From an uncultured Victivallis sp. (GTDB taxonomy: Bacteria > Verrucomicrobiota > Lentisphaeria > Victivallales > GWF2-50-93), in the NCBI GenBank assembly GCA_964600895.1, contig CAZRKP010000005.1:118068-182067 (forward strand): a DNA stretch of 64,000 nucleotides, written 5' to 3'. A program made the position numbers and the translations under genes. Below, piece by piece: positions 24,813-30,963 of the stretch (the first letter of the stretch is position 1; each line of letters opens with the position of its first letter). The notes beneath the pieces were generated by a model that was not told where the DNA came from, ran no database searches, and was given only the letters and a program-made list of their open reading frames with translations.

Positions 24813-25325
24813 TCAGCCGAAGATCCTGTTGATGAATGAAAGGATCCTGGACACCAGGTTCAGTGTAGTTTTCTTACGCTTCCGGATGGATTCCCTATGG
24901 GCAAGGCTCTCCTCCTTCAGCCTTTTCAGTAGTTCCTCAAGTTCAGGAAGCTTGGTGGTAAAAGCATCAAAGACAATGGAATCAATTGTCTTATCCTCAA
25001 CAGTTTCAGCTAAAGAGAGAGCATCTGCCGATGAAAAATAATCCTTCGTGTTGAGGACACGGAGCTGCAGTTCCAAAAATTCGCATGTCTTTTCAAGAGT
25101 ATGTAGGGTTACGTCCTCATGCTCAACTGAAATTTTCCCTTCCTTAAGGCTGTCATGGAACTTGGTGACAATCCTTTCATGTCCTTCTTCCTCTTTCTTG
25201 AGCTTCGACCACAGATCGCGGTTGGCATGGTTCTTTTCTGCAAGCTTGCCGTAGATTTCGGCGGAAAGGGCCTCAACCAGTGCCATTTTCTTCAAGCGTA
25301 TTTCCTGTGTGACAACGCTGGTCAT
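24813..25325 (-). CDS. Hypothetical helical protein (possibly a ferritin-like four-helix bundle)
   Basis: Helical and Glu-rich with one 'EEGH' (ExxH) motif. ATG 25325 lies 4 nt after the FHA gene stop, and GTG 25337 is an alternative. The family assignment is weak. Confidence 0.5.
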   Translation of the reverse strand: MTSVVTQEIRLKKMALVEALSAEIYGKLAEKNHANRDLWSKLKKEEEGHERIVTKFHDSLKEGKISVEHEDVTLHTLEKTCEFLELQLRVLNTKDYFSSADALSLAETVEDKTIDSIVFDAFTTKLPELEELLKRLKEESLAHRESIRKRKKTTLNLVSRILSFINRIFG

Positions 25326-25329
25326 CAGC

Positions 25330-25731
25330 CTAAGCACTCTTTACATAGTTGAATTTAAAGGAACCGGTGCCGATGGGAATCACAGCGTCATCAAAGAGCC
25401 TGTAGGTATCCTTCTCGAATTTCTGTCTGTTCTGGCCTAAAACATGCACTTCGAAGTATTTCTCGGCAGGATGGCATATGAGCTCGAGGTGGTGCCTTGA
25501 AACAAACTTGTCTGTTATTGTGATGTGATTGCCAGATCCCCTTCCTATGGAATACGACAGGGGTAGAAGATCTATTACAGTTCCCTCCTTAATGTTCTCA
25601 AAGGGATCGATGCATACAAGCCTGGCCACTACGAGGTTCTTCTTGCAATTGGGACAGGAAAGTGAATTTCTGCCATTGTCCGCCCCGCAATGGAAACATT
25701 TGAAAGATTCTTCCATCTCCACTTCTCCCAT
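25330..25731 (-). CDS. Zinc-ribbon + FHA domain protein
   Basis: 'CFHCGADNGRNSLSCPNCKK' is a zinc ribbon. 'IGRGSGNHITITDKFVSRHHLEL...' is the FHA GR...SxxH core. Confidence 0.8.
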   Translation of the reverse strand: MGEVEMEESFKCFHCGADNGRNSLSCPNCKKNLVVARLVCIDPFENIKEGTVIDLLPLSYSIGRGSGNHITITDKFVSRHHLELICHPAEKYFEVHVLGQNRQKFEKDTYRLFDDAVIPIGTGSFKFNYVKSA

Positions 25732-25851: not shown

Positions 25852-27549
25852 ATGAAAATGCCATTCCCATCTGTCTCAAGGACAATCATAGTTCTCATGC
25901 TGTTTTTGTCGACCGCCGCTTCGGCAAGGGCAATAAGCTGGGAGTTCTCTGAAGTCTCGCTTTCGATCCGGCCAGACGGCAAGGCGACGGTCGTGTATCA
26001 AGTTGCAATCAATCCCCAGGGCTTCAACCTCCACGGATTCTATTTTGAAGGGTTTACTGGTAAGCCGCATTTCGACATGACACGCTGTTTCGCCCTTGAC
26101 GCGCAGAACAAAAAATATGATCTTTCAATAAAGCCTGTGAGCAGTTCGAAATACGACGTGATCCTCGCAAATGGCGCCGCCATCTCAAACAGCCGGGTGA
26201 TCTACAATCTAACCTATGGCACCGATCTCGCTGAAACCGGCAATCTTGCAGCTACAACATCTTCGGATGGAAAGAATCTCGTGGTCCTCAACTGGGCACC
26301 GGTCCAATGGGAGGATCCTGTCGGACACTATGCCCTGAAGATATACTGGCCAATGGAACTGCCAGACAACAAGGCTCCACGAGAAGAACTCTCGAAGAAA
26401 ATCCTGACTGAACAGTGGATGAACAAGCAATACAAGATGGACTATCGCGCCCAGGAATACAACGGAAAATTCTGGCTGATGCAGCTAATATACTGGGAGA
26501 AAGTGCCTGTCAAGGGGCATTTCCGCATCCAGGAATACGTCGATGCCTCCATCTTCAACCTTCCGGCAAAGAAATCCGCAGACTTGAATACAGGACTCGT
26601 CGAACCTCAGCCGGATGGAGGGAAACAAGTCCAGAATTTTGTACCTCCGACGAATGAACAGAACAACTATGGAGAGAACATAAGGAAATATTCGGTCATT
26701 GCATTGGCTGTGATGGCGGTCATACTGATCATTGCATTCCTGATCATAGTGATCGGAAAACACAACAGCATGCTGAGCGCAGCTGACGGGCTTTCGGATG
26801 TAAGCTGGATAGATCAGGACTGGACTCCTCCGAAAATGATCATCACAACTTTCAGGGAAAAGGGGAAGATCCCGAAGCTTTCAGTTCTTGAAGCCGCCTT
26901 GTTCATCGGTCTTCCAGTCAACCGTATCCTTGGAATAATGCTTGGCAAACTCCAGAACCAGGGGGTGGTAAGTCTCCATGATGACGGTCGCATAGATGTC
27001 CTTGATGCTGGAGCAAACCTCGATCAGTTCGAAACTCTGCTTGTACAGGCTGTAGGTCCGGACAACAGGCTCAATCCCGACAAGATCCGTGGACTGGTGA
27101 ATCTCATGGTAGATGAGATGCGCCGCAAATCCTGGGATGCCGACCCTGAAGCGACCACGGAATTTTACACCAATAAGTTCAGGGAGTCCTTTGAAAAGAA
27201 GCCACAGCCCACTGAACAGGATAAAAATTCCCAGCAGTATTATTATGACAACTATTATCCCTACTGGTTCTACTACTGCCATCATAACCATGACTCATAT
27301 CAAACTGCCAGCAATCAAGTTCCCAAGACCGTTCAGGGCAGTCTTGATTCGATTACTGGAATATCCGGGGACTACAAGAGCTTCATGGACAGCCCGGCCT
27401 GTTACCAGGGATGCTTTGTCCATACCGCATGCCATGATGCTTGTCACTCGGCCTGCCATTCGGCGTGTCATTCAGCATGTCATTCGGCATGCCACTCTGC
27501 GTGCCATTCTGCATGCCATTCAGCCTGTGTCAGCGGAGGTGCACATTGA
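25852..27549 (+). CDS. DUF2207-like single-pass membrane protein with a C-terminal Cys/His-rich (Ala-Cys-His-Ser)n repeat tail
   Basis: Signal peptide 'MKMPFPSVSRTIIVLMLFLSTAASARA'. N-terminal domain 'SLSIRPDGKATVVYQVAINPQGFNLHGFYF'. One TM at about aa 280-303 (26689-26760). 'LSVLEAALFIGLPVNRILGIMLGKLQNQGVV' resembles the DUF2207 post-TM motif. The tail reads 'CYQGCFVHTACHDACHSACHSACHSACHSACHSACHSACHSACVSGGAH'. Confidence 0.85.
   Translation: MKMPFPSVSRTIIVLMLFLSTAASARAISWEFSEVSLSIRPDGKATVVYQVAINPQGFNLHGFYFEGFTGKPHFDMTRCFALDAQNKKYDLSIKPVSSSKYDVILANGAAISNSRVIYNLTYGTDLAETGNLAATTSSDGKNLVVLNWAPVQWEDPVGHYALKIYWPMELPDNKAPREELSKKILTEQWMNKQYKMDYRAQEYNGKFWLMQLIYWEKVPVKGHFRIQEYVDASIFNLPAKKSADLNTGLVEPQPDGGKQVQNFVPPTNEQNNYGENIRKYSVIALAVMAVILIIAFLIIVIGKHNSMLSAADGLSDVSWIDQDWTPPKMIITTFREKGKIPKLSVLEAALFIGLPVNRILGIMLGKLQNQGVVSLHDDGRIDVLDAGANLDQFETLLVQAVGPDNRLNPDKIRGLVNLMVDEMRRKSWDADPEATTEFYTNKFRESFEKKPQPTEQDKNSQQYYYDNYYPYWFYYCHHNHDSYQTASNQVPKTVQGSLDSITGISGDYKSFMDSPACYQGCFVHTACHDACHSACHSACHSACHSACHSACHSACHSACVSGGAH
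27427..27534 (+). repeat. Coding tandem repeat: nine 12-nt units encoding A-C-x-[D/S] (1x ACHD, 7x ACHS, 1x ACVS)
   Basis: I read the codons directly. Every 12-nt unit differs from the others at synonymous positions (Ala gca/gct/gcc/gcg, Cys tgc/tgt, His cat/cac, Ser tcg/tca/tct). Confidence 0.95.
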
Positions 27550-28880
27550 TCGATGCCTGGAAAAACAAGGATGCTTTCTCATGGGTGGACGACTATTTCT
27601 CCCATGTCAGACCTCATTTTGACGTAAGGGAGGAAGACAGTCTCCTGATCATACTTCCTAACCGGGCGATGAAGTTGAACAATACCGGTTTCAAGGTCCT
27701 GAAATTCATGAAGGACGGGGGTTCAATCGATAAACTGGTTGGCAAGATAGGGGAAAATGATGGCCGGCGCAGGGAACTTTTCCATTTCCTCTGCGATTTT
27801 CGCAGCCTCATGACCGGATGTCTTGGCGAAGGCAGGGGGCGCAAGGCGGTTTCCATAGAAAAATATTCTGGTTTATTCAATTCACTTCCGGTGCTTTCGG
27901 AGATCGCCGTCACCTACCGTTGCAACCTGAAATGCAGGTTCTGCTACGCTGCATGCGGATGCCGGCGGAAAGATGAAGATGAACAAGAAATGTCCACCAA
28001 TGAAATCAAACGCGTCCTCGGTACAATCAGAAATGACGCCAAGGTCCCATCGGTCAGTTTTACAGGAGGAGAACCTCTTCTCAGGAATGATCTGGAGGAA
28101 CTTGTCTCTTCAGCAAAGAAAATCGGGCTGAGAGTCAACCTGATAACCAACGGAACGCTTCTTGCAGGAAATGATCGTGCAGGAAGGCTTCAGAAGGCGG
28201 GATTGAATTCGGCACAGGTTTCCCTCGAAGGTCCGAATGCAGAAATCCATGATGAACTTACGGAAGTTGCGGGCTCATTTGAAAAGACGATGGAAGGGAT
28301 ACGCGCCTTGAAGAAATCCGGAATACATGTCCATACGAACACGACCATAAATTCGAAGAATTCCGGCCATCTCGTGGAACTTGTCCGGACCGTATCGGAA
28401 CTCGGGCTGAGTCGGATGTCCATGAACATGGTGATTCCGACCGGCAGCGCAGTCAAATCAAAGCTGCAGGTCTCATACACGGAGATATGGCCAATAATCG
28501 AGCCAGTTCGAAATGAAGCGAGACGGCTCGGAATTGAATTCATGTGGTATTCACCGACCCCCATGTGCATATTCAATCCTCTTGCGGAAGGATTCGGCAA
28601 CAAGAGCTGTGCTGCATGCGACGGACTGCTCAGCATCGCACCGAACGGCGATATACTGCCATGTTCAAGTTATCCAAAATCCGTAGGCAACCTGCTGCGC
28701 CAGCCGTTCCCGGAAGTTTGGAATTCCGCTACCTCCCTTTTCTTCAGGAAAAAGGAATATGCGCCGGGAGAGTGTTCGGGATGCGGCGACTTTTCAGCCT
28801 GTACAGGAGCATGCCCTCTCTACTGGTCCGCCATGGGAACTGCCGAACTCGGTGAAAGGAGGAAGCATGCTGCTGCCTGA
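27546..28880 (+). CDS. Radical SAM / SPASM domain peptide-modifying enzyme with an N-terminal PqqD/RRE-like domain
   Basis: 'YRCNLKCRFCYA' is the CxxxCxxC motif. The SPASM motifs are 'CDGLLSIAPNGDILPC' (CX9GX4C) and 'CSGCGDFSACTGAC' (CX2CX5CX3C). The N-terminus 'LLIILPNRAMKLNNTGFKVLKFMKDGGSIDKLVGKI' is PqqD-like. The likely start is TTG 27546, overlapping the upstream TGA, with GTG 27585 as an alternative. The ORF-track start at 27441 is an out-of-frame reading of the repeat. Confidence 0.9.
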   Translation: MIDAWKNKDAFSWVDDYFSHVRPHFDVREEDSLLIILPNRAMKLNNTGFKVLKFMKDGGSIDKLVGKIGENDGRRRELFHFLCDFRSLMTGCLGEGRGRKAVSIEKYSGLFNSLPVLSEIAVTYRCNLKCRFCYAACGCRRKDEDEQEMSTNEIKRVLGTIRNDAKVPSVSFTGGEPLLRNDLEELVSSAKKIGLRVNLITNGTLLAGNDRAGRLQKAGLNSAQVSLEGPNAEIHDELTEVAGSFEKTMEGIRALKKSGIHVHTNTTINSKNSGHLVELVRTVSELGLSRMSMNMVIPTGSAVKSKLQVSYTEIWPIIEPVRNEARRLGIEFMWYSPTPMCIFNPLAEGFGNKSCAACDGLLSIAPNGDILPCSSYPKSVGNLLRQPFPEVWNSATSLFFRKKEYAPGECSGCGDFSACTGACPLYWSAMGTAELGERRKHAAA

Positions 28881-29868
28881 TCCAAAACGCCGTGGGGAGA
28901 TCCATTTTATCTTCGTGAAATCTATGCCATATACGACCAGGCTTTCCCTGATCGTCATTTTACTTCTAACTGGATTTGGATTGCAGATATTCCTCGGATG
29001 GACTGTAATTGGCGCCATATTCCTCCTTGTTTCATCCATGATGGGGATCGTGAAAGGATATACGAACGTACCGGAGGAGCTTGGTTCAAAGAAGGAATGG
29101 CGCTCGGGCGACAAGCAGCAGCTTGAAAAAATCCTCGAGATATCGGAGAATTCACGAAGATGGGACAGGAGCTTCATCGACATCACATGCCCCCATGGAT
29201 GCTTTACCCTTGCAGCAATCATTGGAGTCTTCTTCCTCTTTTATTTTGTAAGCTCCAGCTGCGGATATACCTGGCTTGCGCTCACAGTGTCCGTGGATGC
29301 CATCGTATTACTGTTTCCGCACTGGGTGACCGGTGTCCGTCGCATCCTGACAAATGCGCCTCTGACAGTGAAGGTTGAAAATCTCCTGCATATATATACC
29401 ATCTGGGAGGCTATCAAGAAGGATGGAGAGAACATGACCGTCCAACTCGAAGTAGTAAAGGGAACAAAAGGAGAGATGCCTGTTGACGCAAAACTGATTT
29501 TGCAGATACCGGCACTCGGTGAGGATTTCTTCGGTGTGCAGACACAGGTGGTCCTCAATAATGTCCAGGGATCTGATTATCCATATCTCTACTGTGTCCT
29601 TGTTGCAAAGGAAAAATTCGAACTTAGGAAAAAACTATCAAAGGTTTCCTCTGAGGCTGAAGAGTCTTCGAAATCCTCTGATTCATTCCTTGTCAGGCTG
29701 ATAAGGACATCTTCCGGAATCTGTACGGAATGGAAGTCCCAGGACGGCATGGATGTACTCGTGATCCGCCAGCAGACGACTCAGCAGACCGGATACCATA
29801 CCGACAGAAATGCCACGGAACGTCTTTTCAGGTTCGCTTTAAGCAAAGCCCGCAACCTTGTCAAGTAG
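28867..29868 (+). CDS. Uncharacterised membrane protein (about 4 TM plus a soluble C-terminal domain), third gene of the radical-SAM operon
   Basis: ATG 28867 overlaps the rSAM stop by 14 nt. Hydrophobic pairs 'LSLIVILLLTGFGLQIFLGWTVIGAIFLLVSSMMGIV' and 'CFTLAAIIGVFFLFYFV...YTWLALTVSVDAIVLLF'. No family was recognised. Confidence 0.7.
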   Translation: MLLPDPKRRGEIHFIFVKSMPYTTRLSLIVILLLTGFGLQIFLGWTVIGAIFLLVSSMMGIVKGYTNVPEELGSKKEWRSGDKQQLEKILEISENSRRWDRSFIDITCPHGCFTLAAIIGVFFLFYFVSSSCGYTWLALTVSVDAIVLLFPHWVTGVRRILTNAPLTVKVENLLHIYTIWEAIKKDGENMTVQLEVVKGTKGEMPVDAKLILQIPALGEDFFGVQTQVVLNNVQGSDYPYLYCVLVAKEKFELRKKLSKVSSEAEESSKSSDSFLVRLIRTSSGICTEWKSQDGMDVLVIRQQTTQQTGYHTDRNATERLFRFALSKARNLVK

Positions 29869-29898: not shown

Positions 29899-30963
29899 TT
29901 ACTTGTATTCCTCGCATGCTTCCTTCATGGCCACAAGGTTCTCCCATGGGACTTCAGGTTCAACCATGTGAGTAGGACCGATAACAATACCGCCCTGCTT
30001 GCCACAGATTTGCAAATTCTTCCGGATAACATCCTTCACCTCGGCAGGTTTTCCAAAAGGAAGCGTGGTCTGCGTGCCTATGGTGCTCCAGAATGACATC
30101 CTTCCGCCGACAAGCTTGTGCACATCCTCGAACTTCATGCATTCCGGCTGCACGGGATTCAGAATGTCAACTCCAACCTCGATCAGATCGTCCAGGAACG
30201 GCAGGACGAATCCGCATGAATGGTAGAACACAAGGATGTCGGGCTTGATGTTACGAGCCTCGGCAATCACCTTTGCCAGCCTCGGCTTGAGCCACTGGCG
30301 CCAGAGCTCCACGCTCATCATCGGGGTCGACTGCATGCCGATGTCATCGCCAAGTTGGACAAGGTCCGTTCCAGCCTTCGCTGCAATACGGATCCTCTCG
30401 CAGGAAAGGTCTGTGATCTTGTCGAGAAGAACGGTGGCCTTCTCATCCTCGCTCAGCATATCGATCATCAGATCTTCCATTGAACGCATGTACCAGGATC
30501 CCTCCCATATCGTGCATGCCATCCCGACCATGGAAGCAAGTCCTTCCTTCCTCAGGTCCTCCACTTTCTTTTTCGCTTCAGGAAGTGCGTCCTTGTGGAA
30601 CGTAGGGAACGGATAATTATTGATCTCTTCGACGGTACGGTCGTCCCCTTTGAGAGGATGGTGCATTCGAGTCATGTGGAAGCATCCCGGCTGGTGTGAA
30701 TGTCCAACTCCGGTATTGCTGAAAGTCGTATCTGGTGGGAGTTCCTCGTGTCGATAGTATCTCTTCCAGTCTTTGAACGCCTGTTCCTCCCTTATCCCTA
30801 ATCCCCTGCACGGTGAACCAAACCATTTGTGATAATCCGTATGTCCGAAACGTTTCTTGAACGCCTCGAGCTGGTCCGGGCAGAACGCATTCGGATCGAT
30901 CGGAACCTTCTCAAATCCCTGCCTTCTCAACGACCTTAGAAGATTTTCGCGTAAAGTTGCCAT
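29899..30963 (-). CDS. Uroporphyrinogen decarboxylase (URO-D) family protein, not in a haem context
   Basis: The length and the motifs 'LGDDIGMQSTPMMS', 'FYHSCG' and 'VDILNPVQP' are typical of the URO-D/MtaA-like TIM-barrel family. Confidence 0.75.
   Translation of the reverse strand: MATLRENLLRSLRRQGFEKVPIDPNAFCPDQLEAFKKRFGHTDYHKWFGSPCRGLGIREEQAFKDWKRYYRHEELPPDTTFSNTGVGHSHQPGCFHMTRMHHPLKGDDRTVEEINNYPFPTFHKDALPEAKKKVEDLRKEGLASMVGMACTIWEGSWYMRSMEDLMIDMLSEDEKATVLLDKITDLSCERIRIAAKAGTDLVQLGDDIGMQSTPMMSVELWRQWLKPRLAKVIAEARNIKPDILVFYHSCGFVLPFLDDLIEVGVDILNPVQPECMKFEDVHKLVGGRMSFWSTIGTQTTLPFGKPAEVKDVIRKNLQICGKQGGIVIGPTHMVEPEVPWENLVAMKEACEEYK

Follow-up and report, generated by a model that had tools for sequence, protein, structure and literature searches.

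A three-gene cassette and its Cys/His-rich tail

The 64,000-nucleotide (nt) stretch of DNA considered here (hereafter the window) stems from an uncultured Victivallis sp. (contig CAZRKP010000005.1, positions 118,068 to 182,067) and carries on its plus strand a cassette of three successive genes. The first (25852..27549, stop codon included) is an open reading frame (ORF) with relatives in other genomes that encodes a 565-amino-acid (aa) membrane protein with a repetitive tail. The second (27546..28880) encodes a 444-aa radical S-adenosylmethionine (SAM)/SPASM enzyme, and the third (28867..29868) a membrane protein of ~333 aa. The tail (aa 526-565; 27427..27546, plus strand) is delimited by its sequence, by the orthologous tails and by its pattern of nonsynonymous and synonymous change. 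In the frame of ORF 25852-27549, positions 27427-27549 translate as ACHD, seven ACHS units, ACVS, GGAH and the stop. The codons of the first half of the array are gca tgc cat gat, gct tgt cac tcg, gcc tgc cat tcg and gcg tgt cat tca. The middle part reads gca tgt cat tcg, gca tgc cac tct, gcg tgc cat tct and gca tgc cat tca, and the end gcc tgt gtc agc followed by gga ggt gca cat tga. All seven ACHS units are distinct 12-mers with differences confined to third codon positions, just as an earlier note on this DNA had described, and their Ser codons are all of the TCN type. Tandem Repeats Finder recognizes the array as period 12 with 82% matches, and a six-frame scan of the window identified it as the sole run of at least four Cxxx units; its occurrence is far beyond chance.

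The tail is equally readable as nine H-x-A-C units that extend from H524 to C559. It harbors nine Cys and nine His within 40 residues at a strict 4-residue spacing, and a His is located at position i-3 of 84% of the tail Cys. An additional His three residues ahead of the first array Cys is found in 46 of 83 tails, including that of the window (FVHT-AC), while the last tail Cys is always followed by Val and never by His.

Upstream of the array, the protein comprises several modules, all on the plus strand. The hydrophobic N-terminus, which is present in all orthologues and modeled by AlphaFold2 (AF2) as a helix of residues 8-24 in the window protein, suggests a signal peptide (~aa 1-27, ...AASARA; 25852..25932) with a presumed cleavage site. 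A probably extracytoplasmic β-sandwich domain follows (aa 28-231; 25933..26544), which is predicted with a local distance difference test score (pLDDT) of ~75-89 and according to Foldseek resembles the N-terminal β-sandwich of M1 aminopeptidases/LTA4H (E ~1e-6). The DUF2207 (PF09972) N-terminal domain is matched by 13 of 30 relatives (best E 5.7e-6); the window protein itself is unmatched and has no Pfam or NCBIfam match. A single transmembrane (TM) helix (~aa 282-312; 26695..26787) is apparent from hydropathy (Kyte-Doolittle peak 3.55) and from an AF2 helix of the same extent, and 71 of 83 orthologues feature one strong hydrophobic segment. Because a signal peptide is combined with a single TM helix, the C-terminus is probably cytoplasmic. 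This would also apply to a conserved winged-helix-like domain (aa 345-450; 26884..27201; AF2 pLDDT 80-91), the module most widely common to distant relatives (e. g. P0110, P0114 and P0133). The AF2 model was built from an alignment of only 9 sequences and has a mean pLDDT of 67.

Directly ahead of the array, orthologue alignments reveal a conserved segment with two extra Cys, Y508-x-x-F-x-x-S-x-A-C-x-x-G-C-x-x-H-T (27373..27426, plus strand). Y508, F511, A516, C517 and C521 are invariant in one alignment (A1), and S514 and C517 nearly invariant in another (A2). This segment may constitute a recognition or leader-like element that binds an RRE, the recognition element of pathways to peptides that are made by the ribosome and modified after translation (RiPPs). 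A Tyr/Trp/His-rich stretch (aa 463-481; window 27238-27294; YYYDNYYPYWFYYCHHNHD) is situated between the winged-helix-like domain and the tail and is modeled by AF2 at low confidence; orthologues have an aromatic-rich, poorly alignable segment at this position, too.

Conservation of the array and drift of its codons

When one genome per GTDB species was scanned with a degenerate pattern, at least 553 genomes proved to encode a relative of the tail protein, and among 1.84 billion cluster representatives, which were searched exhaustively with HMMER, 631 matched at E ≤ 1e-3. A word-indexed search of a 5.8-billion-protein database badly under-reports the family, with no more than 8 relatives retrieved even when a 30-sequence profile was used. 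The top 80 genome hits were retained as loci. All of them are metagenome-assembled genomes, a possible reason for the lack of studies on the system. They are distributed over Lentisphaerae/Lentisphaerota, Kiritimatiellae, Verrucomicrobia, Planctomycetota, Sumerlaeota, Hydrogenedentota, Armatimonadota, Elusimicrobia, Nitrospirae, Aminicenantes, Omnitrophota, WOR-3, Fermentibacteria and Clostridia, and one bin is labeled Bathyarchaeia. The full sequence set comprises 86 members (85 loci plus the window), and the residue and unit counts given below refer to the 84 non-duplicate loci.

The tail is intact in all 86 sequences examined, i. e. in more than 15 phyla, and the whole tail proteins are only ~35% identical across the family. 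From the second unit onward, A, C and H are essentially invariant, the exceptions being four Val-for-Ala replacements at one position and one in-frame TGA. The fourth position of the unit is variable (S, D, G, N or T). As a rule, the array opens with ACHD, and it always ends in ACVS followed by GGx[H/R] or SGH. Contiguous units number 8-10; in the wider family, this number ranges from 3 to 12 or more and variants with ACVHD inserts exist, with the cap being retained. These findings bear out the view of the earlier note that the array is a functional peptide motif rather than low-complexity noise. The alignment of orthologous tails that it had proposed gave intact arrays throughout, with nonsynonymous change far below that of the gene body (see below).

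The earlier note had also reasoned that orthologues without the tail, or with degenerate versions of it, would speak against constraint. None of the 86 sequences lacks the tail, and a single case appeared degenerate at first sight. In the tail of P0006 (locus L005), a TGA occupies exactly the Cys position of the third unit (A-TGA-H-D; L005:1667-1669). The same TGA is present at L086:4615-4617 and L087:3655-3657, with identical sequence in three independent metagenome assemblies. Downstream of it, five intact ACHS units, an ACVSGDAH cap and the usual TTGA junction with the next gene follow. The classification of this tail as a degenerate orthologue was therefore rejected, as the TGA is in frame at a Cys codon and the array behind it is intact. 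The TGA could specify selenocysteine or represent a recent nonsense mutation; a search for a selenocysteine insertion sequence at the TGA of this lineage gave no significant hairpin (z=0.47).

Nei-Gojobori counts between the window and its four closest relatives allow the tail to be compared with the remainder of the gene. The proportion of synonymous differences (pS) amounts to 0.64-1.00 in the tail and 0.65-0.82 in the gene body, while that of nonsynonymous differences (pN) is 0-0.024 in the tail and 0.14-0.34 in the body. Amino acid change is thus at least ~10-fold rarer in the tail, and its synonymous sites drift at the same saturated rate as those of the rest of the gene. With tail pN near zero at saturated pS, these sequence comparisons lend strong support to the view of the earlier note that the array is old and that its peptide is maintained by purifying selection. 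This is also reflected in the comparison with L006 (Lentisphaerae bacterium GWF2_49_21), whose tail protein is 76% identical to that of the window and whose flanking genes are 84-92% identical. Corresponding units share on average 10.0 of 12 nt and non-corresponding units 9.83, so that no positional correspondence is left at the DNA level. The synonymous scrambling of the units is saturated neutral drift under very strong amino acid constraint. The array hence provides a clean example of a scrambled repeat that needs no special selection on its codons, as saturated drift under peptide constraint suffices.

The earlier note had additionally considered that codon diversity among the units might be selected to prevent replication slippage or unequal recombination. 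A hint in this direction comes from the window itself, where no two units are identical and the longest exact internal repeat of 9 nt is marginally short compared with a simulated mean of 13.5 nt (P=0.07). However, random synonymous draws from the codon usage of the window yield seven distinct units in 73% of trials (P=0.73). For this reason, the distinctness of the seven ACHS units, taken alone, is unremarkable. Moreover, the family-wide trend is the opposite. With all long ORFs of each of the 84 loci as codon-usage background, the observed numbers of same-codon pairs across tails (4226 vs simulated 3871 +/- 63) and of identical 12-nt unit pairs (80 vs 25.7 +/- 5) as well as the summed longest exact repeats (1419 vs 1110 +/- 31) show that the similarity between units slightly exceeds that expected from random synonymous choice. 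Together with the equal pS of tail and body and with a unit number that does vary between lineages, these results leave this part of the earlier proposal very improbable.

An even smaller probability, close to nil, has to be assigned to the converse idea of a functionless, recently expanded low-complexity or slippage repeat, or of an element that acts at the nucleotide level via an overlapping frame or an RNA structure. A slippage microsatellite would consist of DNA units that are nearly identical and would vary in length between close relatives. It can be rejected because the units of the window all differ, pS is saturated, and 8-10 units are maintained across many phyla. What might be taken to favor a nucleotide-level element is an ORF in the +1 frame (27441-28880) that spans the repeat and continues into the radical SAM gene. 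It offers a TTG at 27441 and ATGs at 27477, 27489 and 27513, which would give the enzyme a spurious Phe/Pro/Met-rich N-terminal extension. This ORF was rejected as coding across the repeat, since the alignable part of radical SAM orthologues begins only at about residues 1-13 of the product of TTG 27546 and synonymous sites are saturated, with the amino acids of the array invariant across phyla. The saturation of the tail's synonymous sites excludes constraint by a +1-frame ORF, an antisense ORF or an RNA element alike, and the window gave no match to Rfam.

The coupled radical SAM/SPASM enzyme and a possible modification of the tail

What probably gives the motif its meaning lies just beyond the coordinates of the earlier note and was missed by it, namely the radical SAM maturase encoded directly downstream. 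The TTG start codon of this gene (27546..28880, plus strand; PF04055, 3.9e-31; PF13186, 1e-9) overlaps the TGA stop codon of the tail gene (TTGA), and the equivalent TTG was chosen by a gene caller in L005; the two genes are translationally coupled. The enzyme contains a CX3CX2C radical SAM cluster motif (C126, C130 and C133; 27921..27944) that is invariant in 76 of 76 orthologues. Its SPASM region (PF13186 and orthologue alignment) features eight Cys (C341, C355, C358, C373, C410, C413, C419 and C423; 28566..28814), seven of which are invariant in the same 76 sequences and the eighth, C358, is present in 69; this pattern is consistent with two auxiliary clusters. Family conservation and profile matches further delineate an N-terminal PqqD-like RRE domain (aa ~11-115; 27576..27890). 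PF05402 (PqqD) is matched by 17 of 29 N-terminal extensions (best E 1.8e-5), and a profile search of the PDB with this extension placed TfuB1 (E 0.22), a lasso-peptide RRE, and PqqD (E 0.67) within the top four. CX3CX2C motif, SPASM cysteine set and PqqD-like RRE are the features of an RRE-dependent radical SAM/SPASM maturase, and the conservation of the PqqD-like domain across the family suggests that the enzyme recognizes and matures a peptide or protein.

The enzyme matches only the generic models Radical_SAM, SPASM and Fer4_12 and no NCBIfam family at its curated cut-off. Behind the best-scoring models AhbD and NirJ2 (see below), the scores relative to the cut-offs are 133/400 for GeoRSP, 130/650 for WgkB, 113/381 for PqqE, 102/625 for StsB, 97.5/500 for HxsC4 and 89.6/400 for TIGR04340 (ACGX-system).

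RRE-SPASM enzymes are known to install Cys thioethers, with precedents that include sactisynthases and ranthisynthases (PMC8326336). In freyrasin (PapA/PapB), six repeated Cys-Asp Cβ thioethers are formed by an RRE-SPASM enzyme, and in NxxcA, Cys23 is linked to Asn20, three residues upstream (PMC8326336). QhpD is a SPASM radical SAM enzyme that introduces several Cys thioethers into a protein subunit that stays functional (PMC8326336). In light of these systems, we consider it probable, at roughly 60%, that the (ACHx)n tail, a constant C-terminal module under strong selection in a single-pass, DUF2207-like membrane protein, is the substrate region of the coupled downstream radical SAM/SPASM enzyme. 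The conservation of the tail, the synteny of the cassette, the domain make-up of the enzyme and the neutral synonymous sites are direct observations that support this assignment. By analogy, Cys thioether cross-links would be the likeliest chemistry. The RRE of the enzyme could dock onto the conserved Y-x-x-F-x-x-S segment upstream of the array, whereupon the enzyme would abstract a hydrogen in each 4-residue unit and join the resulting carbon to the sulfur of a neighboring Cys. Repeated along the 8-10 units, this reaction would leave the tail as a ladder of small thioether rings. His(i)...Cys(i+3) are one candidate pair, in analogy to Asn20-Cys23 of NxxcA. The product would stay on the membrane protein at the cytoplasmic side, possibly as a Cys/His metal-binding element. 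Conceivably, the modified tail is a docking element for the third, membrane-embedded protein of the cassette.

Several points weigh against this proposal. The chemistry is drawn entirely from analogy, and the best NCBIfam scores of the enzyme are for the tetrapyrrole enzymes AhbD (162/500) and NirJ2 (148/500), not for known thioether synthases. The window copy of the N-terminal extension on its own gives no Pfam/PqqD match. AF2 models the tail as a helix at a pLDDT below 40. The cytoplasmic placement of the tail would follow only from the signal peptide and one TM helix; the count of Lys and Arg around this helix (2.58 vs 3.02) gives no orientation by the positive-inside rule. Furthermore, the candidate substrate is a 565-aa membrane protein, and the cassette lacks a protease or exporter. 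The system therefore is not a classical RiPP pathway, which would comprise a short precursor, a cleavable leader and a protease or exporter in the cluster.

Finally, the Cys/His array could serve as a metal site without any modification. According to this alternative, the tail binds Zn, Ni, Cu, Fe or an Fe-S cluster, and the enzyme acts elsewhere or takes the tail as a cluster or metal donor. The density and strict spacing of the nine Cys and nine His fit such a function, as does the variability of position 4, whereas the potential ligands C and H are invariant. The lineage with a TGA, possibly selenocysteine, at a Cys position and the presence of NifU next to the cassette in 9 Elusimicrobia loci point in the same direction. 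However, the Ala at position 1 varies no more than Cys and His do, although a pure ligand array needs no such Ala. In addition, the partner enzyme carries a PqqD/RRE peptide-recognition domain and is translationally coupled to the tail protein, and the NifU linkage is limited to one clade. An unmodified metal site thus appears unlikely. Metal binding and the role of the tail as a substrate are compatible, as cross-linking could create a metal site.

The similarity of the enzyme to AhbD and NirJ2, its top NCBIfam matches, raises another alternative, in which overlapping C-x-x-x-C-H motifs bind tetrapyrroles covalently and an AhbD/NirJ-like enzyme acts on the bound tetrapyrrole. Indeed, CHSACH of the tail fits CX3CH, a variant haem-c motif. 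Yet, the AhbD score is far below its cut-off, and the enzyme has a peptide-recognition domain; we know of no such domain in AhbD or NirJ. A haem site every 4-8 residues is also sterically implausible. c-Type cytochromes feature an extracytoplasmic motif and a haem-lyase system. Here, the tail would be cytoplasmic, a location that itself follows from the predicted topology, while haem c is attached extracytoplasmically, and the cassette is devoid of cytochrome-c maturation genes. Tetrapyrrole attachment hence is highly implausible.

Returning to the tail as substrate of the enzyme, a more far-reaching version can be put forward tentatively. An undescribed protein modification might be involved, in which an RRE-radical SAM/SPASM enzyme iteratively rewires the cytoplasmic His-x-Ala-Cys array of a membrane protein into a cofactor-like ladder. 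This covalently cross-linked ladder may bear a metal or selenium and may act together with the membrane partner. If correct, the modification would operate in at least 553 species genomes, mostly of uncultivated anaerobes, from more than 15 phyla, and this compact system of three genes could reveal a new cross-link chemistry or a protein-derived metal site.

Short secreted peptides are the main setting in which radical SAM/SPASM enzymes are known to act on Cys-rich repeats; the present cassette seems to use the same logic on the tail of a large membrane protein. Targets with short-period repeats also occur in Haft-type radical SAM/SPASM systems such as the ACGX-repeat system (TIGR04340), with A-C-G-X target repeats of period 4, and the His-Xaa-Ser (Hxs) system, with H-x-S arrays at the end of a larger protein. 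The enzyme scores of 89.6/400 (TIGR04340) and 97.5/500 (HxsC4) are low, and the ACGX and HxsA models gave no match to the tail at E ≤ 10. The sole curated family touched by the tail is TIGR04117 (Syntroph_Cxxx), the "Cys-Xaa-Xaa-Xaa repeat radical SAM target protein", which likewise has a Cys at every fourth residue of its C-terminal region. Such an array beside a radical SAM/SPASM gene is exactly what is found in the present system. The resemblance is weak and does not amount to membership: the window tail scores 10.1 bits (E 0.67) and the best relatives 17-19 bits at a cut-off of 50, and 3 of 30 family members match at E ≤ 0.01. The TIGR04117 profile spans 98 positions and its members presumably are small, whereas the present array forms the C-terminus of a DUF2207-like membrane protein of 565 aa. 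Peculiar to the present family are the ACH/HxAC signature and the ACVSGGxH cap. With its N-terminal signal, extracytoplasmic β-sandwich, TM helix and C-terminal region, the tail protein shares the layout of DUF2207 (PF09972) proteins, but to our knowledge ordinary DUF2207 proteins have neither a Cys/His array nor a radical SAM partner.

Ranthipeptide/SCIFF pathways (PapA/PapB, CteA/CteB, NxxcA/NxxcB) likewise combine RRE, radical SAM and SPASM domains with Cys-rich and often repeated motifs. The acceptor Asn of NxxcA at i-3 of the Cys parallels the His found at i-3 of most tail Cys. In freyrasin, the acceptor is Asp, while Asp or Ser at position 4 of the present tail is not conserved. Ranthipeptide substrates are short leader-core peptides, unlike the present 565-aa protein, and models of ranthipeptide-type maturases (StsB, WgkB) remain below their cut-offs with the present enzyme. 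The QhpD/QhpC pair shares with the present proposal that thioethers would be introduced into a retained protein rather than a released natural product. QhpC, however, is a small soluble subunit without a repeat array and its cassette differs in content. By analogy, the system would follow the working principle of Haft-type radical SAM/SPASM target systems and of ranthipeptide pathways. It is set apart by the tail of a large membrane protein as putative target, by the lack of a protease or exporter and by proteins outside the curated families: none of the three cassette proteins reaches the curated cut-off of any specific Pfam or NCBIfam family in the releases searched. Within the literature library that was searched, the motif strings and the CXXX repeat led to no description of the system, and no paper there pairs DUF2207 with radical SAM.

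The third protein, flanking genes and architectural variants

Among 15 window ORFs that were tested across the 85 loci, only the three cassette genes are conserved. The tail protein is present in 85 of 85 loci, the radical SAM gene directly downstream in 83, and the third gene directly after it in 77. The shortfalls are explained by contig ends and by a scaffold gap in L069, a locus without the radical SAM gene, where 100 N lie right behind the tail gene. Clustering of all flanking ORFs revealed clade-specific extras only and no further widespread partner, and the conserved three-gene cassette contains no protease, transporter/exporter or cytochrome-c maturation gene.

The third protein (28867..29868, plus strand) possesses hydrophobic helices in its N-terminal half, three of them above the hydropathy threshold, and a conserved soluble C-terminal domain. 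Its conserved motifs are G.Q.Q...N.VQG...PY.YCV and RQ.T....GY.T. No Pfam, NCBIfam or PDB relative was found, and an AF2 prediction from the single sequence reached a pLDDT of 51.5. Most orthologues align from the residue encoded at 28867, and ATG 28867, with a 14-nt overlap with the radical SAM gene, is the likely start. The longest ORF begins at 28759 and overlaps the radical SAM 3' end by ~120 nt (28759-28880). In the Planctomycetes-Verrucomicrobia-Chlamydiae group, Hydrogenedentota and a few other loci, tblastn similarity reaches into this overlap; some loci with such similarity, e. g. L012, lack a start codon there. The similarity probably reflects conserved SPASM codons that are read in another frame.

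Outside the cassette, conservation is restricted to individual clades. In 17 loci, a conserved ORF of ~130 aa without Pfam match is located directly upstream of the tail gene (e. g. L016:4664-5053 and L069:5565-5957). It is absent from the window, and other clades have different small membrane ORFs at this position (L019:863-1420, L086:2384-3004). In the Elusimicrobia loci mentioned above, a full-length NifU with NifU_N, BFD-like [2Fe-2S] and NifU domains is encoded directly downstream of the cassette (e. g. L019:5545-6411), which could mean a link to Fe-S supply or mere clade synteny.

Two divergently oriented genes precede the cassette in the window (24813-25731, minus strand), neither of which is conserved beside the cassette in other loci. 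One encodes a 133-aa protein with an FHA domain (PF00498, 2.8e-7), whose N-terminal CxxC...CxxC resembles a putative zinc ribbon, and the other a 174-aa protein without family match. Downstream (29899-30963, minus strand) lies a gene for a URO-D family protein, whose likeness to MtaA/CmuA methylcobamide methyltransferases is far below the respective cut-offs. It shares 92% identity with the corresponding protein of Lentisphaerae bacterium GWF2_49_21, in which synteny with the window extends to either side of the cassette.

Distant relatives of the tail protein (P0043, P0110, P0114 and P0133) display architectural variants that retain the winged-helix-like module and the Cys/His tail. The ectodomain is duplicated in P0043 (843 aa), and P0133 has extra TM helices. 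The tails of some distant relatives are altered by ACVHD inserts or, in P0114, by a CDSSCDSCHSS extension.

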